Assembly: GCA_963709405.1 (NCBI GenBank)
Contig: CAVPXM010000043.1
Location: 1-14,252, forward strand
Source of the DNA: an uncultured Nitrososphaerales archaeon
Lineage (GTDB): Archaea > Thermoproteota > Nitrososphaeria > Nitrososphaerales > Nitrososphaeraceae
Direction: 5' to 3'
Length of the DNA: 14,252 nucleotides
Numbering within the stretch: the stretch's first letter is position 1; each line of letters begins with the position of its first letter. Under the pieces are notes generated by a model. The model saw nothing but the letters and a program-made list of their open reading frames with translations. It was not told the DNA's origin and did not search any database. Below are positions 460-14,252 of this stretch, piece after piece. A program made the position numbers and the translations under genes.

Positions 460-1260
460 TTAGCTGATATAACTGGTATTAGATGGTTTACGTGGCATAC
501 TCGATTGGGGATATTCCAATCCTTCTCGAGCTATTTGCTGTTGTATAGTTTGGATTAGCATCTCCGTGTCTTTTGCTTTCTTCTCAAGGTTAGTCATATC
601 TACTGAGATTCCAAGTATTGAAATCAAGCATTCTAATATGGACTTGGAAGCTTTGGCATCAACAACGTAACCTGATGTTTCTACCAATAAACAAGTACCT
701 TGGATTCCCAGAAGCTTCGCAACACCAACAATAAGGCCATTCATCCCTGCTACTATACCACCTTTATTCATAGGGAAGACATTTTTTTCATTAAATGTGT
801 TTACTATGTCTATATCAGTTGCTGTTCCAAATATACGCGGGTTGTCCACAAACACCCCAGTAACGTATGCTGCCATAGTGAAGACCTTTTTTGTATTGAA
901 CTTTGCAGCAATGTCTAAGATTTGTTCAGCCAGAAGATATTCAGAATCTGGATTTTCTGGCTGCGAGTCTCCAGTCAACAATAGCAAGTCATTATTGCTA
1001 GAAGAAAGAGCCTTTGAATAAAAAATAGTATTCTTCATAAGTTCTGCTACGCCATTTGATCTGATCACAATCTGTGGAGGAAATGAGCTGGAGTAGATGT
1101 CAGCTAGATGGTTTGCATTAAGCTCTTGAATCAAATGATCGATTGCTAGTTTTCCAACATATCCGCTTCCAGGAAAACCACAAATTAAATATGGAGAATG
1201 GAGCTCTGGCATATCGGAAGAATGATAAACTACTTTCATTCTGCGTATGGACGGTAGCAT
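460..1260 (-). CDS. PAC2 family (proteasome assembly chaperone-like) protein
   Basis: N-terminal LICGFPGSGYVGKLAIDHLI, then LLLLTGDSQP, GMNGLIVG and ETSGYVVDAKA, ending in YIS; these match archaeal PAC2-family proteins. ATG at 1260 preferred over TTG at 1269, but the start is uncertain. Confidence 0.88.
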   Translation of the reverse strand: MLPSIRRMKVVYHSSDMPELHSPYLICGFPGSGYVGKLAIDHLIQELNANHLADIYSSSFPPQIVIRSNGVAELMKNTIFYSKALSSSNNDLLLLTGDSQPENPDSEYLLAEQILDIAAKFNTKKVFTMAAYVTGVFVDNPRIFGTATDIDIVNTFNEKNVFPMNKGGIVAGMNGLIVGVAKLLGIQGTCLLVETSGYVVDAKASKSILECLISILGISVDMTNLEKKAKDTEMLIQTIQQQIAREGLEYPQSSMPRKPSNTSYIS

Positions 1261-1321
1261 TTGATTCAAAGGCTATTCAACTATATTCTCAGCTATGTGA
1301 CAATATTTATAAAGTCTCTGT

Positions 1322-1880: not shown

Positions 1881-3527
1881 ATGTTTTCTAAAATTGTTGA
1901 CGTAATGACTCCTCTCTCTGAAATAAGAGATAATGCCATTATTGCAATTTCAGGATTCAATATGGCTACTACTCCTGAGTATTTAATTCTTGAACTTTAT
2001 AGACAACATGTTGAAGAAGGACATCCAAAAAATATATTTATAATCTCAGATGCCCTACCTGCCAGCCCCGGAAGAGCCTTAGATCAAATCGCAGAAAGAA
2101 TATACAAAGAGTCTAATCAAGAATTTCTCAGAGGTGCCTTGATGCCTTTTTTGGGCTTTTCTCCATGGCTCCAGAAGATGGTAGCAGATAACAGGATCGA
2201 ATGGTACGGATGGCCGATAGGCATAACCGCATATTGGTTCAGAGAGATAGCAGCTGGAAGACCAGGTCTATTGACTAAGATAGGTGTAGATACGTTCCTC
2301 GATCCCCGCAAAGAGGGTGGGGCATTGAATGAACTCGCAAAAAAGAACCTCTCGTGCAAAGTTAGAGTACTTGATATTGAAGGAATAGATTACCTTTTAT
2401 ACCAGGCTCCAAAGCCAGATTTTGCTTTGATCAGAGCTTCTGTGTCCGATGAGAAAGGTAATCTGTCATTGCAGGATGAGGGATTGAGAGGTACTATTCT
2501 TAGCATTGCCCAAGCGGCTAGAGTAAGACCACGTCAGGGTGTAGTCATAGCCCAGGTAAGATGGATAACAAGATCCGGTACTATGAATCCAAGAGATGTA
2601 GATGTACCTGGCCCATTGGTAAATAATGTTGTAGTTGCACCAAAAGAATATCATTGGCAGAGCGCCACTATAGAGTATGATCCTAGAATCTCGTATAAGG
2701 TAATGCCTCCTATAACTGAGAAACTATTGAACGATATCACTAGAACATCTTTGAAGGACGATGAAAAAATAATAGCCAGAAGGATTCTGCTGGAGTTAAT
2801 AAGATTATTCAAAAGCAGACGAGATACTGTATTAGTCAACCTAGGAATAGGAATTCCAGCTATGATCTCATTAGTAGTCGCCCAAGAAGACGTAACAGAA
2901 GCAATTATATCGGTACTTGAATCCGGTCCTTGGGGAGGACTTGCTCTATCAGGAAATGACTTTGGATTAGCAATAAGCCCATTCGCACTTTCGACTATAC
3001 CTGATGTTTTCTCTAACTTTGAGGGCGGGATAATCGATGCTGCTTCTCTTGGTTTTCTACAAGTTGATAAAAAAGGAAATGTAAATGCATCTATGTTGCC
3101 TGGTAGATTCTTTGGACCAGGCGGATTCCCAGTAATAGCCGGAGGGGTGCCTAGAATTTACTTTGCAGGAACTTTCACTGCAGGAAGAACCGAGATTAGC
3201 GTCTCGTCTAATAAGGTGAAAATAATGCATGAGGGTACAATATCAAAGTTCATCGAAAGCGTGTTTATGGTTGCATTTAGCGGACAGCAGGCAATAAAAT
3301 TTGGGCAAGAGATTCTCTATATTACTGAGAGAGCGGTTTTCAGACTAACTAGAGATGGAATAGTTCTCGAAGAAGTTGCTCCTGGAATTGACATTGATAA
3401 AGATATAATACCTAACATGGGTTTCAGGCCTATAATAAGAGGATCAATAGAGGAAATGGATAACAGAATCTTTAATGAATCAAAAATGGGCGTTAGAGAT
3501 GAGATTATGCAAATATTTGAGACATGA
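1881..3527 (+). CDS. family I CoA-transferase, fused alpha/beta (propionate CoA-transferase / YdiF-like)
   Basis: 548 aa with AAGRPGLLTKIGVDTFLDPR, ALIRASVSDEKGNLS, VNLGIGIP, LESGPWGG (E347, codon 2919-2921, at the catalytic Glu position), FLQVDKKGNVNAS and YITERAVFRL..EVAPGID. Confidence 0.92.
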   Translation: MFSKIVDVMTPLSEIRDNAIIAISGFNMATTPEYLILELYRQHVEEGHPKNIFIISDALPASPGRALDQIAERIYKESNQEFLRGALMPFLGFSPWLQKMVADNRIEWYGWPIGITAYWFREIAAGRPGLLTKIGVDTFLDPRKEGGALNELAKKNLSCKVRVLDIEGIDYLLYQAPKPDFALIRASVSDEKGNLSLQDEGLRGTILSIAQAARVRPRQGVVIAQVRWITRSGTMNPRDVDVPGPLVNNVVVAPKEYHWQSATIEYDPRISYKVMPPITEKLLNDITRTSLKDDEKIIARRILLELIRLFKSRRDTVLVNLGIGIPAMISLVVAQEDVTEAIISVLESGPWGGLALSGNDFGLAISPFALSTIPDVFSNFEGGIIDAASLGFLQVDKKGNVNASMLPGRFFGPGGFPVIAGGVPRIYFAGTFTAGRTEISVSSNKVKIMHEGTISKFIESVFMVAFSGQQAIKFGQEILYITERAVFRLTRDGIVLEEVAPGIDIDKDIIPNMGFRPIIRGSIEEMDNRIFNESKMGVRDEIMQIFET

Positions 3528-4227
3528 CATGATCGTAAAATCTGTTCAAGTAGTAAATTGGTCAGAAGCATACTTGTAAGTACATTCTATAGGTTAGAAT
3601 TAGCAGCAAATAAAGCGCAAAAACTCCTTCTCGAAGTTAAGTGTAGAAGGAAGGCTTGATAGTAAAATCTTAGAGATAACACATGGAATGATATTGACTC
3701 TTTCTTTAATGCAAGACCTATGACTTTTCATCGCAGCTGATGATTACTTATAATTAATTCATTTCTTGCATTTTTCAAAGACTTATACACTATATTCGTT
3801 TGTGCAAATTACTACCTGTATCATATCTTCTATATCATCTATCTCACAGCTAACAAATATATTAATTCGATAGTAACTTAATTATACTCTCGTGAGTAAA
3901 ATGATGAATATTGCGATAGTAGCATTGGACTGAATTATAATGATAGAACAAATCTTACTGTGGGAAATAAACTAGATATACCTTAATTATTTACAGAGGT
4001 TAGACTCCAATAAATTCTGAGCTGATAAGTCCAAAATCGGTAGACAGATCATTGTTTAGTTCCATGGCTCAATGCGGTCGACGTTCATCAAATGGAGTAT
4101 TAGAGAATGAATGCAATAATGCGGTGTTTAGACAAGAGCTATGAACTTACGTAACAATGTCGGTACCGTCTTTTTCATCATTACCACGCAGATTAAAGTA
4201 GTCCTCCTTTTATACTAATCTGAGGCC

Positions 4228-5763
4228 ATGGATTTCAAAGAACTTAATGATAAAAGGAATGAACATTCATTCGGGGGTGGAAAGGAAAAGCAAGAAGAGC
4301 GCAGAAGGAAAGGAAAGTTGACAGCTTTTGAAAGGATGGACACCCTGTTTGATTCCCAAACCTTCGTAGAGCTTGATCATTTTGTGACTCATGAATGCTC
4401 CGACTTTGGCATGGAAAAGAAAAAGTATCTCGGAGATGGAGTGGTAACAGGTCATGGCCTGATTGATGGTAGGGTGGCATTTGCTTTCTCACACGACTTT
4501 ACAGTATTAGGCGGATCTTTAGGTTGGGCATTTGCCTCTAAAGTTACGAAGGTAATGGACCTTGCATTGAAACAAGGAGTTCCAATAATAGGTGTAAATG
4601 AATCTGGAGGAGCTCGTATCCAAGAAGGAGTAACTAGTCTAGCTGGTTATGCGGAGATTTTTCATAGGAATGTGAAAGCTTCAGGAGTTGTTCCTCAAAT
4701 ATCTCTTATAATGGGTCCTTGTGCAGGAGGAGCAGTATATTCTCCAGCTTTGACAGACTTTATAATCATGAACAACTCGGCATACATGTTTATTACTGGT
4801 CCAGAGGTAGTTAAGGAGGTCACTAATGAGAATGTAAGTTTCGAAGAGCTTGGCGGAGCCCAGATCCATAACGAAAGGAGTGGAGTTGCACATTTTCTTG
4901 TTGAGGATGAATATGAATGTTTTAGAATTCTGCGGTCACTTCTTTCGTTCATTCCGTCAAACAACTTAGAAAATCCACCTCGCATAGCTCCAACAGATGA
5001 TCCCAAGAGACAAGACTATGAACTCAACTCGATCCTGCCTTCAAATCCAAATATGTCTTATGATATGGGATCAATAATCAGAAAAATTGTAGACAATGGC
5101 GATTTCCTTGAAGTGCAAAAATACTGGGCGCGAAATATAATAGTAGGCTTCGCAAGACTTGACGGCAACTCAGTAGGCATTGTAGCCAACAATCCTGAAT
5201 CATTGGCTGGGGTTCTTGATATTGATTGCTGCGATAAGGCTACACGATTTACAAGGTTCTGTGATTGCTTTAACATTCCTATAGTCGCTTTAGTAGATGT
5301 GCCAGGCTTCCTTCCTGGAACTAGTCAAGAATGGGGGGGGATAATTAGGCATGGAGCAAAACTTCTCTATGCCTTCTCAGAAGCTACAGTGCCTCGACTC
5401 ACAGTCATAACACGAAAAGCTTACGGTGGAGCATATGATGTTATGAATAGTAAGCATATAGGAGCAGACTTCAATTTTGCGTGGCCCACTGCAGAGATCG
5501 CTGTCATGGGGCCAGAAGGTGCTTCTAATATTATATTTAGGAAGGAAATATTAGGGTCGAAAAACCCAGAAAAGAAAAGAATAGAATTAGTACAAGATTA
5601 TAAGAATAAATTCTCCAATCCTTACATCGCAGTTTCAAAAGGCTATATAGATGAGGTCATAGAGCCTAAAGAAACCAGAGAGAGGCTGATTACATCACTT
5701 AAGCGTATTTACAGAAAGAGGGAGGTAAAACCTATGAGGAAACATGGCAACATCCCAGTTTAG
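4228..5763 (+). CDS. pccB: acyl-CoA (probably propionyl-CoA) carboxylase, carboxyltransferase subunit
   Basis: 511 aa with GDGVVTG, DFTVLGGSLG, SGGARIQEG, GPCAGGAVYSPALTDF, DVPGFLPG, RKAYGGAYDVMNSKH, AWPTAEIAVMG and terminal RKHGNIPV. Confidence 0.93.
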   Translation: MDFKELNDKRNEHSFGGGKEKQEERRRKGKLTAFERMDTLFDSQTFVELDHFVTHECSDFGMEKKKYLGDGVVTGHGLIDGRVAFAFSHDFTVLGGSLGWAFASKVTKVMDLALKQGVPIIGVNESGGARIQEGVTSLAGYAEIFHRNVKASGVVPQISLIMGPCAGGAVYSPALTDFIIMNNSAYMFITGPEVVKEVTNENVSFEELGGAQIHNERSGVAHFLVEDEYECFRILRSLLSFIPSNNLENPPRIAPTDDPKRQDYELNSILPSNPNMSYDMGSIIRKIVDNGDFLEVQKYWARNIIVGFARLDGNSVGIVANNPESLAGVLDIDCCDKATRFTRFCDCFNIPIVALVDVPGFLPGTSQEWGGIIRHGAKLLYAFSEATVPRLTVITRKAYGGAYDVMNSKHIGADFNFAWPTAEIAVMGPEGASNIIFRKEILGSKNPEKKRIELVQDYKNKFSNPYIAVSKGYIDEVIEPKETRERLITSLKRIYRKREVKPMRKHGNIPV

Positions 5764-5927
5764 TCAATTATTCTTACAAGTTTTTGCCATAATTAGAACA
5801 ATCAATCATGAATAAATTTGCAATAAACAAACTAAAAGGTTATGCAGTTCACTCCTAGCCATAACGTGATAGTCATACTGAAACTGGGAGAATTTGACTC
5901 TTCTGCATAAAATATGCTTGAGGAACA

Positions 5928-5934
5928 TTTAAAG
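5928..5934 (+). promoter_or_regulatory. putative TATA box for accC-accB
   Basis: TTTAAAG about 27-33 nt upstream of the in-frame TTG at 5961, within a ~200-nt gap after pccB. Confidence 0.35.
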
Positions 5935-5960
5935 CCAAAAGTTTGAGTTTTCCTCTTGTT

Positions 5961-7463
5961 TTGTCTTCATTGTCGAAAAACGTCCTAATAGCAAATAGAG
6001 GAGAAATTGCAATAAGAATAGCGAGAACATGCAAGAAACTTGATCTCAAGCCGTTTGGTATCTATTCCGATGCCGACAAGGGTTCCCTTCACATAAGACA
6101 ATGCGAGAGAGCAGTAAACATAGGAGGGTTTACGTCATCAGAAAGCTATCTTAAGATGGATAAGATAATTGATGCTGCCAAAGAACTTGGCTGTGAACTA
6201 ATACATCCTGGATATGGATTTCTTTCTGAGAACTCTAACTTTGTAATGCTTTGCAAGAAAGAAGGGTTGACTTTCATAGGACCATCATACCAAGCAATGA
6301 GTATTACAGGAGATAAAGCTCGTTCTAGAAGAGTTGCTTCAAAAATTACGTCAATAGTCGACGGAGATGAGGTATCTAATGAAAGGAGTGCTATAGAGCT
6401 AGCAGAAAAGATTGGGTATCCTGTAATTCTTAAGGCAGTACATGGAGGAGGTGGAAGAGGCCTTAGGATATTAAGATCATTCGAAGAGCTAAAGGAAGCG
6501 TTTGCCGCTTCTAAGAATGAGGCAATGATAAGTTTCGGTTCAGATAGAATATACGTCGAAAAATACATAGAAAATCCAAGACATATAGAAGTCCAGGTAC
6601 TCGCAGATGATTCTAAAATAATTCATCTAGGAGAAAGGGAGTGCTCAATTCAACGACGCCATCAGAAACTCATTGAGGAGACTCCTTCTCCAGCTCTTAC
6701 TGTGGAAATGAGGAATGAAATTACTAAAACAGCCATAGCAATAATGAAAGAAATGGGGTACACAAATGCAGGTACTGTCGAATTCCTATTTAAGGATAAT
6801 AAGTTTTATTTCATGGAAGTCAATGCGAGGATACAAGTTGAACACCCTATAACAGAGGCAGTTACAGGTGTAGACATAGTGGAAGAGCAGCTCAGGATAG
6901 CATTAGGTAGTGGGCTATCGATAAAGCAAGAAAATGTAAGATCAAAAGGACATGCAATAGAATGTCGAATAAATTCAGAACATCCCTTAAGTTTTGTTCC
7001 TTTCTCAGGAACCATTACGAAATTCATAGTTCCTAATGTGGAAGGTATTAGGGTCGATACAGCCATGTATCCTGGATACTCAATACCAGTTTTCTATGAT
7101 TCACTAATTGCGAAGATTATATCACTTGCAAATAGCCGCTTGGAAGCGATAGAAAAGATGAAAAGCTCACTCATCTCTTTTAGGATTTCAGGAATTCCAT
7201 CAACCATCCCATTCCACATTTCGGCATTGAATGATACAAGGTTCGTTGACGGAAAATATGACACATCATTTATCAATGAAATGACTTCATTTTCATCAAA
7301 GGATGGGGAAATAGCTGCAGCACTATTATCGTTCATGCCAAAGAGAATCGAGTTCTTAAAAAATGAAACACAGTATATGAGTAATGATCCATGGATGCAG
7401 GGTAGGTACGATTTTATCGACACATTTGACCATCACGCTAATATAAAAAAGTGGATTATATGA
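5961..7463 (+). CDS. accC: biotin carboxylase subunit of acyl-CoA carboxylase
   Basis: VLIANRGEIA, IHPGYGFLSEN, KAVHGGGGRG, RHIEVQ, ERECSIQRRHQK, EVNARIQVEH, IECRINSE and YDSLIAK. The start is a TTG at 5943, 5961 or 5970; 5961 fits the TATA spacing. Confidence 0.93.
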   Translation: MSSLSKNVLIANRGEIAIRIARTCKKLDLKPFGIYSDADKGSLHIRQCERAVNIGGFTSSESYLKMDKIIDAAKELGCELIHPGYGFLSENSNFVMLCKKEGLTFIGPSYQAMSITGDKARSRRVASKITSIVDGDEVSNERSAIELAEKIGYPVILKAVHGGGGRGLRILRSFEELKEAFAASKNEAMISFGSDRIYVEKYIENPRHIEVQVLADDSKIIHLGERECSIQRRHQKLIEETPSPALTVEMRNEITKTAIAIMKEMGYTNAGTVEFLFKDNKFYFMEVNARIQVEHPITEAVTGVDIVEEQLRIALGSGLSIKQENVRSKGHAIECRINSEHPLSFVPFSGTITKFIVPNVEGIRVDTAMYPGYSIPVFYDSLIAKIISLANSRLEAIEKMKSSLISFRISGIPSTIPFHISALNDTRFVDGKYDTSFINEMTSFSSKDGEIAAALLSFMPKRIEFLKNETQYMSNDPWMQGRYDFIDTFDHHANIKKWII

Positions 7464-7900
7464 AAATTAAGGTAAATGATACCCAATATGATATAGAAAT
7501 TAGGGGGAACAAAGTCAAGGTTAACAATGATAAAGAACTAGTAGTAACACAATTGAATAAAGATGAAATAAGAATAGGGGACAAAACATTTCAATTAGAT
7601 TTTGTAGGAGAAGCGGATCCCTCATTCATGATTATTAACGGTATGGTATATATCGTGTCAAAAGAATCTCTGATCCATGCCTCATTTAAAGAAATAAAGG
7701 CTCCTATAGGCGGCAGGATAGTAAGTGTTTTGGCAGATGTAGGAAGCATAGTCAAGAATGGTCAGGTTCTGTTCGTCTTGGAAGCAATGAAGATGGAGAA
7801 CAGACTAATATGTCCAATCAGTGGAAAAAGAATTAAAGAAATCAAAGTTGTCAAAGGTCAATCGGTAATGACAGGCGAAGTTCTTCTAAGATTTGAATAA
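7460..7900 (+). CDS. accB: biotin carboxyl carrier protein
   Basis: EAMKM biotinylation motif (7781-7795) in a C-terminal biotinyl domain. The ATG at 7460 overlaps the accC stop as ATGA, suggesting translational coupling. Confidence 0.92.
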   Translation: MKIKVNDTQYDIEIRGNKVKVNNDKELVVTQLNKDEIRIGDKTFQLDFVGEADPSFMIINGMVYIVSKESLIHASFKEIKAPIGGRIVSVLADVGSIVKNGQVLFVLEAMKMENRLICPISGKRIKEIKVVKGQSVMTGEVLLRFE

Positions 7901-8120
7901 CAGCACAAAAATATAAAACCTACCTGTTAAGCTCAGCAATCAAAGATATGATACTAAGAATACTTTGGGTATCAGCTTGATAGTCTTCAGATGTGGTTTG
8001 TATATGGCTATAATAAAGGAACCAATTTGCGGCATAATGTTACTTAATTGTAATTATGATCAAGATCAAATGTGATTCAATATAATAGTGTAAACTATAC
8101 GTTTACATAATTGATAATGA

Positions 8121-8138
8121 TAAGATTAAGATTAAGAT
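8121..8138 (+). repeat. (TAAGAT)3 short tandem repeat upstream of the CBS gene
   Basis: Three exact copies, followed by degenerate TGGAT/TAGAT. Confidence 0.7.
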
Positions 8139-8160
8139 TGGATTAGATACACTGATAGTT

Positions 8161-8604
8161 ATGAAAGTCGCAGATATTATGAGGAAAAAACTTGAAACCA
8201 TTGAAGAATTATCTTCTATTCAAGAAGCAGCCAAGAAGATGAAAAACAAAAATGTGAGCTCTCTGATAGTGGTTGATGCCAATGGTAAGCCACAAGGCTT
8301 AGTTACTGAACGTGACTTGGTGAGGAAAGTGTGTGTTAATGACGTGCGTACTAGTGTGATAACAAATAAGGAAATAATGTCTTCTCCTATCATTACTATT
8401 GAGTCTAACTCTTCTCCATCAGAGGCTGCAGATATGATGTTGCAATACAACATAAGACATCTGCTTGTAGTTCATGATGCTAACAGTAATTTGGATAACA
8501 ATCCTATTGGCATAATTACGCCGCTTGACTTTACAAGGTATCAAGAGTATGCAAACGATAATGAAAAAGATTCTATTGAAAAGATATTGGAATATTACAT
8601 ATAA
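8161..8604 (+). CDS. CBS domain pair protein
   Basis: MKVADIM..., VSSLIVVD..GLVTERDLV, IMSSPIITI and IRHLLVV..GIITPLDF form two CBS motifs. Confidence 0.9.
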   Translation: MKVADIMRKKLETIEELSSIQEAAKKMKNKNVSSLIVVDANGKPQGLVTERDLVRKVCVNDVRTSVITNKEIMSSPIITIESNSSPSEAADMMLQYNIRHLLVVHDANSNLDNNPIGIITPLDFTRYQEYANDNEKDSIEKILEYYI

Positions 8605-9213: not shown

Positions 9214-9531
9214 GGATTCCATACGCATAATGGCAGCGTCTATTATACTAAAAAAGAGTCTGAGAGAAGAGAGATTTATCTCACAAAATGTATGAAGTAT
9301 CTTACATTCCTAGATTATACCGCATTGGAAGCTAGAGGAAAAAGCATTGAATCAAAATTGTCTGAAAAGGATAGAGAAATGCAAGCTATGAAGCAAAAAT
9401 ATGAACATGATATCCAGAGGATCCGTGAAGAGACTAATCAGCGATTTAATCAGATTATGTCAATGATACAGCATAATCCCAAACTGGCACAGGTTAAGAG
9501 CATTGTAATATCATTGGCAATTACTTTGTAA
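9214..9531 (+). pseudogene. C-terminal remnant of a probable tyrosine recombinase/integrase
   Basis: The frame of the 79-aa ORF is open back to a TAA at 9211-9213. It reads HNGSVYYTKKESERREIYLTKCMKYLTFLDY, then a coiled coil ending IMSMIQHNPKLAQVK. The H-x4-YY motif and tail resemble Nitrososphaerales integrase C-termini as I recall them. The N-terminal part is absent. Confidence 0.55.
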
Positions 9532-9728
9532 AGTGAATATGATTATTATGACAAACTAATTTTATGGCTACAGCTTTAGCTAACTCATAGCAAAATGACC
9601 AGAGATACTTTACATAATGAACTTATCGTGCCATTTACATAACTGTTAAGCCAGAGGCGTTATTAGATAGGAGAATAGGAGGGGAAGAGAAATCAGTGTT
9701 AAGGAAGTCGCTATTTGTACTAGCTTAT

Positions 9729-11593: not shown

Positions 11594-11743
11594 TTGCATC
11601 TGGCATATCTAAAAGAATAGCTTACAATAATGCCAAGGTATTTCGATGAAGTGGCCTGAGGAAGTTGACTACAAGCGGTTTTCCTAAGGCAGTGAATATA
11701 ACGATGCTTGCACTACCATGCTAGTTTTGAAATTGGATTCCAT

Positions 11744-11870
11744 CCGTCATGGTATCCATAGTAACCATAGTACATATTCAATTCTGTATAACAAAAAAGA
11801 CGTTGTATATATGATATAGCATTCGTAATATGAAATCCAAGTACTATGGATAGCTTGACATCTATGACGG
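11744..11870. repeat. imperfect inverted repeat A (9-bp units, 67-bp AT-rich spacer)
   Basis: Arms 11744-11773 and 11841-11870 match 21/30 by hand count, with exact ends CCGTCAT and CCATAGTAC. The left arm contains GTCATGGTA-TCCATAGTA-ACCATAGTA. Confidence 0.65.
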
Positions 11871-12152
11871 TCCGCCAGTTTCCAGTTACAGTGATCAGCT
11901 ATACATATAGAATGTACTGCAAATCGCAGGGCCCGTATTTAAATCCCATAATCGTAATCCAAATCAGACTATATCGGATATTGCATCAAATCTAGAGTAA
12001 ATCATATGGAAAAAAGTGTATCCATAACAATATGCAGCATACCAGATTTTAAACATTCTCTAAAATAAGACATTATAAGTATAGACTGAAGGTTCGATAT
12101 ACATTGAGATTGATGATATAACTACATGTGTATATTCTCGATCGTGGGCACG

Positions 12153-12505
12153 CGCTCATCGCTAGGGATACAAAACTCGAAAACTGACAAGGATGTTGAG
12201 GGCACACAAGTTCATGTTCCCCGTTACCAACCAATTCAGCTATAGATATAGACAGAACAAGTCTGAGCTCAATAAACGGTTTCTTTTATGATGATCCAAA
12301 TATATCATATACGGCACCCCAGGAGCACACTTTAGACCAAAGCCCGTGTCGCGCAATAGTTGCCATAAAACAAGGATACTTTTACTGCAAATTACATCCT
12401 GACATAAAGGATGCATATCTTGAATTGATAGAGCATCATATCAAGTACAAAGATCCTCAGGAGCACAGATCGGAGTTATTGAAATTATTAAATATTGCCA
12501 AAACT
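12153..12505 (+). pseudogene. gene remnant copy 1, Zn-finger-like C-terminal domain
   Basis: Frame open from 12200 with no in-frame ATG before the motif: ...FFYDDPNISYTAPQEHTLDQSPCRAIVAIKQGYFYCKLHPDIKDAYLELIEHHIKYKDPQEHRSELLKLL. Homologous to 13691-14029. Confidence 0.65.
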
Positions 12506-12533
12506 GGCTCGGATCTCTACAGCTGTTCTCCTA

Positions 12534-12929
12534 CTAGTGTGTTTGATCTCTACGCTCGTGTGATGCTCCTCTACCTGTTAATGTGCCAGTATAATCGCCT
12601 GAAATTTCATTCGCAAAGTCAAAGTCATTTAATCTTTTGAGAATATCACATGTTAATCTCATATTAGTTACGTAGTGAGTACCATTGTCGTATATTGCAG
12701 GAACAAATCCAGTAGTATTCCATATGTGATCCTTGCACCATTGCGAATCAGTACCCTTCTTGGTAAATACTTCAACCATGTAAAAAGGTGCACGTTCAGT
12801 CTTATCTTGTTCCCGTACTAGAAGTTCATGAATGAGCGTAGGATCTACTTTTGGAAGGTATGTTTGATATAGTGTCTCTAGTCCTCTGAAGACATATCTT
12901 ATTTCTTGCAATTCTGTAGTCATCATCAT
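12534..12929 (-). CDS. conserved hypothetical protein (Nitrososphaeraceae-type)
   Basis: 131-aa ATG ORF with protein-like composition (YLPKVDP.LIH.LL.REQ, FYMVEVFTK, PAIYDNGTHYVTN). Recalled as a family found in soil ammonia-oxidising archaea; function unknown. Confidence 0.75.
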   Translation of the reverse strand: MMMTTELQEIRYVFRGLETLYQTYLPKVDPTLIHELLVREQDKTERAPFYMVEVFTKKGTDSQWCKDHIWNTTGFVPAIYDNGTHYVTNMRLTCDILKRLNDFDFANEISGDYTGTLTGRGASHERRDQTH

Positions 12930-12935
12930 TTATTA

Positions 12936-13121
12936 CTATACACCATCTTTCCTATGACGACGACTTGCACTTTGTGAGATCATGACAGTTTTAATTTCTT
13001 TGAACATGCAAGGTCTTATTTTTTCGTCCTTGATTCCGCAGGCGGTAAAATGCCACGCCAGTTCCAGCGAAATATAAGTAACAACAAATCCGATAACTAC
13101 ATACAGGATGTTTTCAATCAT
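12936..13121 (-). CDS. small single-pass membrane protein (61 aa)
   Basis: N-terminal TM segment ILYVVIGFVVTYISLELAW and a basic tail. 6-nt gap to the next gene and a TATA-like CTTAATTAA ~24-32 nt upstream suggest a two-gene operon. Confidence 0.65.
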   Translation of the reverse strand: MIENILYVVIGFVVTYISLELAWHFTACGIKDEKIRPCMFKEIKTVMISQSASRRHRKDGV

Positions 13122-13437
13122 TATTACTTAATGTCTAAATGCTGTTAATTAAGCTCAGTAAAAACTATCTATGATTAATCAGAATAACGGTGTATATATT
13201 GTAAAGTAGTTACTTGTCGCAAATCGAAGAATTCAAGCGATCGATATTGAAAATTTGTGCAAACAGGATGTTAGCTCGTTTTGCGGCCTGTCAGATTATA
13301 TATATTTTCAGGAAATGAGGCATTATCTGTATAGACTGACTTGGTTAGATATACGAACATTGATCAGATAATGCTTCATTTGTATGTCAGTCATGGACGC
13401 GCGCAGCAGTTGATCATACAGATATCGTCTTATAATT

Positions 13438-13560
13438 ACACCCGGGATACCCGGGATAATTTCATATTCTAATTATACTCTCGGTATACGTAGTAATTGT
13501 ATATCCATAATATCTTAAATTCTTCCTTAGGTTAGAAAATAACCCGGGTATCCTGGGTGT
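13438..13560. repeat. inverted repeat B (GC-rich 9-bp units, 71-bp AT-rich spacer)
   Basis: Arms 13438-13463 (ACACCCGGGATACCCGGGATAATTTC) and 13535-13560 match 23/26. The left arm contains ACCCGGGAT twice in tandem. Confidence 0.85.
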
Positions 13561-13690
13561 TAGATGATACTAGATCCAACTCTATGGATAAATCTACAGT
13601 TGCAGTACATCTGGTCGCTCTACGGAATTCTATCCACTGATGCGTACTAGCAGGTTCGACTTTCCCGGTTTCCTGTTCTAAGGAAATTTA

Positions 13691-14029
13691 CGCTCAAATC
13701 ACTAGCGATATTAACGGGAAACTTTGAGGGGACGCGCCTACTCATGTTCCCAGTTAAATGTCCCTTACGCTATATATATAGAAGACACGGCCAAAATCAG
13801 GCCGATAACTGACTTCTCTTATGACGATCCAATATACGCCATATACACCGCTCCCAAAGCAAGATTTAGACCAAAGCCCGTGTTATCCAATAATTGCTAT
13901 AAAGCAGGGATACTTTTAGTGCAGATTGCATCCTGAGATAAAGTATGTACGCCAGAATCGAGAGAATCAAATACAAAGATCCTCTATTACATAAATCAAG
14001 TTCTTGAAATTAGCTGACATTCCCAAACT
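13691..14029 (+). pseudogene. gene remnant copy 2, Zn-finger-like C-terminal domain
   Basis: FSYDDPIYAIYTAPK, frameshift, DLDQSPCYPIIAIKQGYF*CRLHPEIK (TAG at 13917-13919), frameshift, IKYKDP. Shares the exact 19-mer TTTAGACCAAAGCCCGTGT with copy 1. Confidence 0.7.
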
Positions 14030-14177
14030 CATATGAGCAAGTCGATCTTATCAATAGGTAAAACTATCAGGACTCGTGATGGAACTTAATATCTGTCGAC
14101 CCCGCCAATTGATGATATCTATAGGTAGTAGCAATTAGTGGATGTGAACCAAAGTATTTAGTTCATCTAGCAAGTTT

Positions 14178-14252
14178 TTAAGAAATGAAGTCTTCGTTTA
14201 TTTTAGATAAAGCATCGTATACTCCGTCTTCATCTAGCTCCAGGATTAATCT
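14178..14252 (-). CDS. possible 3' end of a gene extending beyond the window
   Basis: Open frame RLILELDEDGVYDALSKINEDFIS* from the window edge; too short to assign. Confidence 0.25.
   Translation of the reverse strand, partial: RLILELDEDGVYDALSKINEDFIS

Follow-up and report, generated by a model that had tools for sequence, protein, structure and literature searches.

The stretch of DNA analysed here, referred to as the window, is an entire contig (C43, 14 kb) of a Nitrososphaeraceae genome (4.83 Mb in 100 contigs). It carries four genes, encoding a CoA-transferase of the YdiF/Pct type and the carboxyltransferase, biotin carboxylase and biotin carrier subunits of a second acyl-CoA carboxylase. 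Comparison with related genomes supports these four genes as a real, conserved accessory module, a genomic unit made up of known kinds of enzyme, found in a host where they were not expected. It does not represent a new kind of system. As to its role, we put the chances at about even that it is an accessory C3-acid module of soil Nitrososphaeraceae, in which a YdiF/Pct-type transferase is combined with a complete second carboxylase of the propionyl-CoA type. The genes and the spacer that separates the first of them from the others are as follows.

1881..3527, forward strand: YdiF/Pct-type fused family-I CoA-transferase, 548 aa (Pfam CoA_trans, 1.8e-31)
3528..4227, no strand: intergenic spacer, unique, 700 nt, with no open reading frame (ORF) longer than 43 aa
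4228..5763, forward strand: carboxyltransferase (beta) subunit, PccB type with Asp404, 511 aa (Carboxyl_trans, 6.2e-188)
5943..7463, forward strand: biotin carboxylase (alpha) subunit, 506 aa (Biotin_carb_N, CPSase_L_D2, Biotin_carb_C); the TTG start is uncertain
7451..7900, forward strand: biotin carboxyl carrier protein, 149 aa (Biotin_lipoyl, 1.4e-12; EAMKM motif)

A preliminary description of this DNA had called the four genes intact and co-oriented, and the ORFs and Pfam domains agree for each of them. The match of Carboxyl_trans (PF01039) to the carboxyltransferase covers positions 3–493 of the 493 in the profile, PF00289, PF02786 and PF02785 all exceed their cut-offs in the biotin carboxylase, and the carrier has a biotinylation sequence close to its C-terminus (LEAMKMEN) that fits the (A/S)MKM biotinyl-lysine motif. 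The carboxyltransferase, the biotin carboxylase and the carrier motif of a three-subunit biotin-dependent acyl-CoA carboxylase of the archaeal/actinobacterial kind are all present. Translation of accB probably starts at the ATG at 7460, in an ATGA overlap with the stop codon of accC; alignments of the relatives' accB products begin at residue 4 of the 149-aa ORF. The best NCBIfam model for the carboxyltransferase is MmdA, the alpha subunit of methylmalonyl-CoA decarboxylase (TIGR01117), an identity that we rejected: the score (792 bits) is below the cut-off (999), no membrane beta subunit is encoded in the window and an ATP-grasp biotin carboxylase is present, so that the enzyme is taken to be a carboxylase and not a sodium-pumping decarboxylase. 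All four genes are under purifying selection, with ratios of nonsynonymous to synonymous substitution rates (dN/dS) of 0.06–0.14 (0.07 for the carboxyltransferase and 0.06–0.12 for the transferase).

The host genome (estimated completeness 91%, contamination 3.7%, G+C content 37%) has an archaeal amoA on contig C21, a gene of the 4-hydroxybutyryl-CoA dehydratase type and, at C55:151603–154820, a cluster encoding methylmalonyl-CoA epimerase, the B12-dependent mutase and MeaB. On these grounds the host, which belongs to the family Nitrososphaeraceae, is an ammonia-oxidizing archaeon, as the preliminary description had considered probable.

A Pfam search found exactly two full carboxyltransferase genes in this genome. 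The other is the canonical one, on contig C47, where the order is pccB–accC–accB and the neighbours encode a peroxiredoxin, a class-V aminotransferase and ribosomal protein S7. The window and C47 proteins share 56% identity in the carboxyltransferase and 44–45% in the biotin carboxylase. No CoA-transferase lies beside the canonical locus in the host genome, nor was one found by tblastn at 20 canonical loci of relatives (about 4 kb to either side). In a set of 41 relatives, all those carrying a window-like copy (74–93% identity) carry a C47-like copy too (55–59%). The two kinds are cleanly separated in the larger sample of 201 Nitrososphaeraceae genomes described below, second copies having at least 71% identity to the window pccB and canonical copies at most 60%, with nothing between.

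Two irregularities in the host assembly concern these paralogues. The canonical accC on C47 (locus L004:7207–8713, minus strand) is split into two overlapping ORFs of 202 and 336 aa by a frame change near the residues EFEMAG, in a non-homopolymer context; its counterpart is intact in G001, of the same genus, and open up to the contig end in G006. Either an error of assembly or a genuine defect could account for the split; a genuine one would leave the window biotin carboxylase as the sole intact one in the genome. A relic of a window-type pccB (about 44 codons, 83% at the protein level) occurs at C37:26393–26529 and at C96:4219–4355; C96 nearly duplicates part of C37 (94–99% identity), which suggests a duplication or a mixture of strains in the assembly.

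The second pccB copies form a clade with a support of 100 both in a FastTree tree of 140 carboxyltransferases and in an IQ-TREE tree of 60 (LG+C20, quick search). In both trees this clade falls outside that of the canonical Nitrososphaerales and Bathyarchaeia enzymes (support 97–98); its sister is a bacterial group, weakly placed (82). In a FastTree tree of 62 biotin carboxylases the second set again forms its own clade (100), here within an archaeal cluster beside two Thermoplasmata-type sequences (90). Outside the family of the host the second clade did not turn up, either in 16 genomes of the order's other families or in a sample of 150 genomes from the phylum. Judged by these trees, the window set is not the canonical enzyme, in keeping with the preliminary description, which had recognized a second, non-canonical carboxylase and a canonical locus without a Pct/YdiF-type transferase. 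That description had also called the set probably acquired, and this is not supported. When second and canonical Nitrososphaerales pccB were forced together, the cost of 16.3 log-likelihood units was not rejected by the approximately unbiased (AU) test (p-AU 0.195), which allows a common origin, and in the accC tree the set falls among archaeal sequences. The trees are compatible with acquisition from outside and with an old, fast-evolving paralogue, and favour neither.

The carboxyltransferases also differ at a site that bears on substrate choice. Asp404 of the window protein, in GGAYDVM, aligns with D407 of the Methylorubrum extorquens propionyl-CoA carboxylase (PCC; PDB code 6ybp) and, by offset, with D422 of Streptomyces coelicolor PccB (PDB code 1xnv). 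Passages of one study report that selectivity is set by D422 in PccB and by I420 in the promiscuous AccB, and that the I420D exchange restricts AccB to propionyl-CoA (PMC7835884); according to parts of another, the D407I exchange makes the M. extorquens enzyme more active on acetyl-CoA (PMC10266731). The second copies have Asp at this site (GAYDVM) in 11 of 13 cases and Cys in the other two, whereas GAYIAM is the motif in each of the 12 canonical copies from the family and in each of the four from family f13; the order's other families have Ile or Cys. The motifs quoted in the preliminary description, GAYDVMNSKHI and HGNIPV for the window and GAYIAMGSKNL for the canonical protein, were recovered, the last from the C47 copy. 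Asp at the D422 site points to a window enzyme that prefers propionyl-CoA. Since most second copies have Asp and the canonical family copies Ile, the pattern would fit a division of labour between a canonical bifunctional enzyme and an accessory one preferring propionyl-CoA.

The closest relative of known structure to the transferase is Escherichia coli YdiF (PDB code 2ahu; 4.2e-83 over residues 17–537). The A and B domains are fused, with a Pfam A-domain match at 13–252 and a TIGR02428 B-domain match at 308–506. Its LESGPWGG aligns with VETGPIGG of YdiF, so that the E-x-G-P-x-G-G motif is conserved; the Glu of E-x-G is presumably the catalytic glutamate of the family-I CoA-transferases. With the NCBIfam model FadX (NF052271) the score is 295 bits, short of the cut-off of 750, and the protein is not an equivalog of staphylococcal FadX. 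Close relatives are automatically named 'propionate CoA-transferase' or 'acyl CoA:acetate/3-ketoacid CoA transferase' and, where the organism is given, come from Nitrososphaeraceae or 'Candidatus Nitrosopolaris'. Among 40 Nitrososphaerales relatives the transferase clade was found only in the family of the window, in 14 of 24 genomes and often in several copies. The host itself has a paralogue with 76% identity at C20:44575–46900, adjoined by a CBS-pair gene.

The association of the transferase with the carboxylase was examined in 201 Nitrososphaeraceae genomes, counting a second pccB at 71% identity or more and a transferase at an E value of 1e-60 or better. A second pccB is present in 61 and a transferase in 66; 46 genomes have both, 15 the carboxylase only, 20 the transferase only and 120 neither (the last including all five genomes flagged as unpublished). 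Judged from coordinates, 20 of the 61 genomes with a second pccB, from at least six genera, have a transferase no more than 5 kb away from the carboxylase genes; the number rises to 21 on inclusion of a copy truncated at the end of a contig (G226, L029). Of the 20 close linkages, 16 were confirmed on fetched DNA. The arrangement varies. The transferase is upstream and co-oriented, often with a gap of about 105–195 nt, in G297, G363, G202, G279 and G309, divergent in G020 and G228, convergent after accB in G287, G303, G265 and G207, and co-oriented after accB in G249. Both genes are present in five of the 37 genomes of genus g14 and adjacent in all five, and no genome of that genus has one alone. 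Among linked pairs the identities of pccB and transferase to their window counterparts covary (Spearman 0.73, n = 13), a correlation that shared descent alone could also give. Conserved proximity in varying order is a usual sign of a functional unit, and it is because proximity is kept here while gene order changes that we regard the module as supported as a genomic unit. A reading of the loci as two unrelated neighbours, suggested by a first sample in which only five of 13 were linked, was overturned by the 201-genome sample and the fetched loci. What the preliminary description had proposed thus holds for the genomic unit, the paralogy and the linkage in relatives, and is not supported for the acquisition: the window carries one of two carboxylase loci, branches outside the canonical clade and belongs to an ammonia oxidizer, and at least 20 of the 61 second-pccB genomes have transferase and carboxylase linked.

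Some copies are damaged. The transferase is truly broken, matching in several pieces, in G004, G020, G006:C467, G345, G350 and G312. In-frame stops ('1 TAG' or '1 TAA') reported for many other transferase matches were considered as marks of pseudogenes or recoding and set aside; in both cases checked the codon was the gene's own stop. In G363:C22 (L170) the second-copy accC matches in three pieces, suggesting frameshifts, with transferase, pccB and accB intact. G020:C3 (L022) has two copies of a DDE_Tnp_4 insertion sequence (IS) with identical scores, one between pccB and accC and one past both accB and a broken MFS gene; since the neighbouring transferase is frameshifted, the module is decaying in this genome. 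A degenerate second locus in G001:C129 (L164), from the same genus as the host, comprises PAC2, transferase, multicopper oxidase, IS (DDE_3) and accC genes and an unscanned ORF in the position of accB, with no pccB; its PAC2–transferase adjacency is as in the window.

Soils commonly contain the locus. Half or more of the sampled words of 1881–8604 are present in 18 sequencing runs from 11 studies of soil, peat, rhizosphere and freshwater sediment, all labelled as DNA except two of unknown kind, and a large protein collection contains over 120 protein clusters with identities of at least 75%. Two RNA runs in the read index, X19 and X20, contain 0.33 and 0.16 of the sampled words, which is no evidence of expression.

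Within the window, the last 45 nt or so of the spacer contain a promoter-like block, rich in A/T and conserved in front of second-copy pccB genes. This block, 'CTTTTATACTAATC', lies about 15–30 nt ahead of the pccB ATG and is common to five of 11 other upstream regions, with a one-base variant in G022; the window has an altered form of the T-run that precedes it. In the window the transferase gene is probably transcribed separately from the carboxylase genes. A comparison by eye of the regions upstream of pccB and of the transferase, made without a motif finder, gave no common motif. When the spacer was searched for a relic gene with blastn and tblastx, neither the genome nor any fetched locus of relatives showed similarity to it.

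The four genes are flanked in the window by two further annotated genes.

460..1269, reverse strand: PAC2-family paralogue, upstream neighbour of the transferase (PAC2, 5.9e-47)
8161..8604, forward strand: stand-alone CBS-pair protein with two domains (CBS, 3.7e-29), a recurrent neighbour of the module

The PAC2 gene has a second copy (61%) on C21. Orthologues of the CBS-pair gene (84–89% identity) lie downstream of accB in three genomes of the same genus, and a near-copy (89%) is found at C32:8645–9085 of the host genome. Around the module and around lone transferases (loci L017–L029, L158–L165 and L169–L182), genes for CBS-pair proteins, Usp, Hsp20 and P-type cation ATPases recur, as do those for nicotinate phosphoribosyltransferase with isochorismatase, class-I GAPDH, Zn alcohol dehydrogenases, P-II and multicopper oxidases, with an occasional integrase or IS copy. 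The 24 loci amount to about 300 kb, and 17 of them together contain 40 CBS, Usp and Hsp20 genes; with about 31 CBS, 25 Usp and four Hsp20 genes in the 4.83 Mb of the host genome (approximately one per 80 kb) as a yardstick, the enrichment is roughly tenfold. This neighbourhood resembles a dormancy-type gene set and also the cargo of thaumarchaeal integrated elements. Parts of a survey of Thaumarchaeota integrated mobile elements name UspA, CBS proteins, multicopper oxidases and P-II among their commonest cargo (PMC6563490), and because the neighbours match this cargo the module may sit in flexible genome islands. In single loci, MeaB, the mutase chaperone, is directly beside the transferase (G265:C37, L175), a PhaC-like hydrolase and a short-chain dehydrogenase adjoin it in G207:C15 (L179), and a short-chain dehydrogenase in G228.

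In the window as a whole, mobile-element hallmarks were not found, Pfam and PHROGs gave nothing for the five unnamed ORFs, and Rfam and tRNA scans returned no matches. Dispersed repeats at 9226–9650 and 11594–14252 have copies with 74–99% identity on C6, C30, C36, C49, C73, C97 and other contigs, and probably explain where contig C43 ends. A 131-aa ORF at 12534–12929 belongs to a multi-copy family with about ten loci.

In the C3-acid scheme that we propose, the transferase would load free propionate or a similar short acid with CoA, using acetyl- or succinyl-CoA as the resident donor thioester. The carboxylase would then convert propionyl-CoA, bicarbonate and ATP to (S)-methylmalonyl-CoA, which the resident epimerase and then the mutase could turn into succinyl-CoA, so that a C3 acid would enter central metabolism. 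The substrate, the CoA donor, the direction of flux and the physiological role are what we infer from the genes; propionate as the substrate and the assimilatory direction follow from one specificity residue, from family membership and from gene linkage.

Several points weigh against this scheme. Sequence tells neither the direction of flux nor the substrate. The NCBIfam score of the transferase is far under any equivalog cut-off, the name 'propionate CoA-transferase' is automatic annotation only, and the YdiF family takes several different short acyl groups. Propionyl-CoA is an intermediate of the resident 3-hydroxypropionate/4-hydroxybutyrate (3HP/4HB) cycle; as the cycle already makes it, the carboxylase requires no propionate from outside. 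Coupling is not obligatory, given the 15 genomes with the carboxylase alone, the 20 with the transferase alone and lone paralogues such as that on C20, and the co-occurrence counts are raw, uncorrected for relatedness or genome completeness. The 700 nt between transferase and pccB in the window compare with only about 105–195 nt in other genera. No recurrent transporter for short-chain acids adjoins the module in the loci examined. Passages of PMC7835884, finally, call the specificity site 'important, but not sole' and describe a Thermobifida enzyme that is promiscuous despite its Asp.

Some of the same observations can be read as an auxiliary branch of the autotrophic cycle, which we consider rather unlikely. 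Here the second enzyme would take the propionyl-CoA step and the transferase would activate 3-hydroxypropionate, 4-hydroxybutyrate or succinate without ATP, perhaps when energy is limiting. It is established that propionyl-CoA is an intermediate of the cycle, and the split of the paralogues by site residue (Ile in canonical, Asp in second copies), the 15 of 61 second-pccB genomes without a transferase and neighbours connected with stress and energy sensing, not transport, would all suit such a role. Yet about 70% of the sampled genomes of the family, and all searched genomes of other families of ammonia-oxidizing archaea, do with the canonical enzyme alone, and the tight linkage of the transferase in many genera would be unneeded. 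Ammonia-oxidizing archaea, moreover, are known to use synthetases for the acid-activation steps.

An improbable alternative is that the pathway runs in reverse under anoxia. Succinate would be converted via succinyl-CoA and methylmalonyl-CoA to propionyl-CoA and CO2, the carboxylase would make ATP by working backwards, and the transferase would hand CoA to the next succinate, with release of propionate. Reversal of propionyl-CoA carboxylase in the propionate branch yields ATP. The enzymes (transferase, propionyl-CoA carboxylase, epimerase and mutase) are those listed, in parts of PMC7828693, for the propionate branch of anaerobic eukaryotes; anaerobic bacteria, in contrast, usually employ decarboxylases or transcarboxylases here, not an ATP-dependent carboxylase. 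The hypoxia- or dormancy-like neighbours (CBS, Usp, Hsp20, P-type ATPase, nicotinate phosphoribosyltransferase, class-I GAPDH and Zn alcohol dehydrogenase) agree with such a route, as do the density of CBS, Usp and Hsp20 genes (40 in about 300 kb, against one per 80 kb or so genome-wide) and the presence of peat and sediment among the DNA runs containing the locus, but the enrichment in stress genes may just mark flexible islands, to judge from parts of PMC6563490. If true, supposedly strict aerobes would own a fermentative route that keeps them energized without oxygen, as part of a hypoxia or dormancy programme.

Quite improbable, too, is a role for the module with other acyl groups, in which the transferase would act on acetoacetate, 3-hydroxybutyrate or butyrate from polyhydroxyalkanoate turnover and the carboxylase would be a promiscuous short-chain acyl-CoA carboxylase. 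YdiF-type enzymes take several short acyl-CoAs, and two of the 13 second copies have Cys in place of Asp. The PhaC-like and dehydrogenase neighbours in G207 and G228 would fit, but they occur in just one or two of the 24 loci, and passages of PMC7835884 make Asp a signature of enzymes that carboxylate propionyl-CoA. It is highly improbable that the window is bacterial DNA binned by mistake or a functionless duplicate in decay. The contig is short (14 kb, in a 100-contig genome with 3.7% contamination) and some relatives have broken copies, but G017 and the single-contig genome G211 each have the second and the canonical paralogue on the same contig, which excludes a binning artefact, the dispersed repeats of the window are also found on other contigs of the genome, a search of 41 relatives and 150 phylum genomes found the second clade in this family only, and dN/dS is 0.06–0.14.

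Strict autotrophy versus the use of organic acids by soil ammonia-oxidizing archaea is an old open question, for which the four genes define a concrete accessory unit; propionate use by supposed autotrophs could follow from it. The second pccB is present in about 30% of the sampled Nitrososphaeraceae species and is adjoined by the transferase in about a third of those, so that relatives with and without the module offer a natural comparison, with a specificity signature unlike that of the CO2-fixing enzyme. Surveys that use 'Acc/Pcc' as a marker of autotrophy apply a label that covers two non-equivalent enzymes in many genomes. A full-text search found no paper in which a second Acc/Pcc, or a transferase of the Pct type, is discussed for ammonia-oxidizing archaea, PMC11131427 being the only one whose supplement was opened. 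The main text of that paper has only 'Acc/Pcc' and never mentions propionate or CoA-transferase. For some of the genomes its supplementary Table S14 lists the KEGG orthologues (KOs) K01026 (pct) and K01966 (pccB), apparently also for a cultured strain, in column MY3, an assignment possibly one column off. If it is right, an existing culture carries both KOs and a test would be possible there.

Among known systems, the nearest to the window carboxylase within the host is the canonical acetyl-/propionyl-CoA carboxylase of the 3HP/4HB cycle on C47. It has the same three subunits in the same pccB–accC–accB order, and both carboxyltransferases are of the PccB/MmdA/12S class with about 510 aa. The two sets belong to separate clades and differ in having Asp instead of Ile at the specificity site; the window set occurs in 61 of the 201 family genomes rather than in all ammonia-oxidizing archaea, and it often adjoins a CoA-transferase, which the canonical set does not. 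Bacterial PccB gives full-length matches (2.4e-186 for S. coelicolor, PDB codes 1xnv and 1xny, and 1.3e-193 for M. extorquens, PDB code 6ybp), has Asp at the D422/D407 position in GGAYDVM as in the window, and is 60–65% identical to the window pccB in Chloroflexota and other bacteria. Unlike bacterial PCC, the window enzyme belongs to an archaeal host, its biotin carboxylase and carrier are separate proteins, and no epsilon-type assembly subunit was seen. The transferase is a distant relative of YdiF and Pct, with the same fused alpha/beta family-I architecture, a similar length and the Glu motif kept. As a whole, the system is closest to the methylmalonyl-CoA pathway (CoA-transferase, PCC or transcarboxylase, epimerase and B12 mutase), all four activities of which are encoded in the host genome. 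Here the accessory module would supply only the first two steps, the last two being encoded by genes of the resident cycle on another contig.

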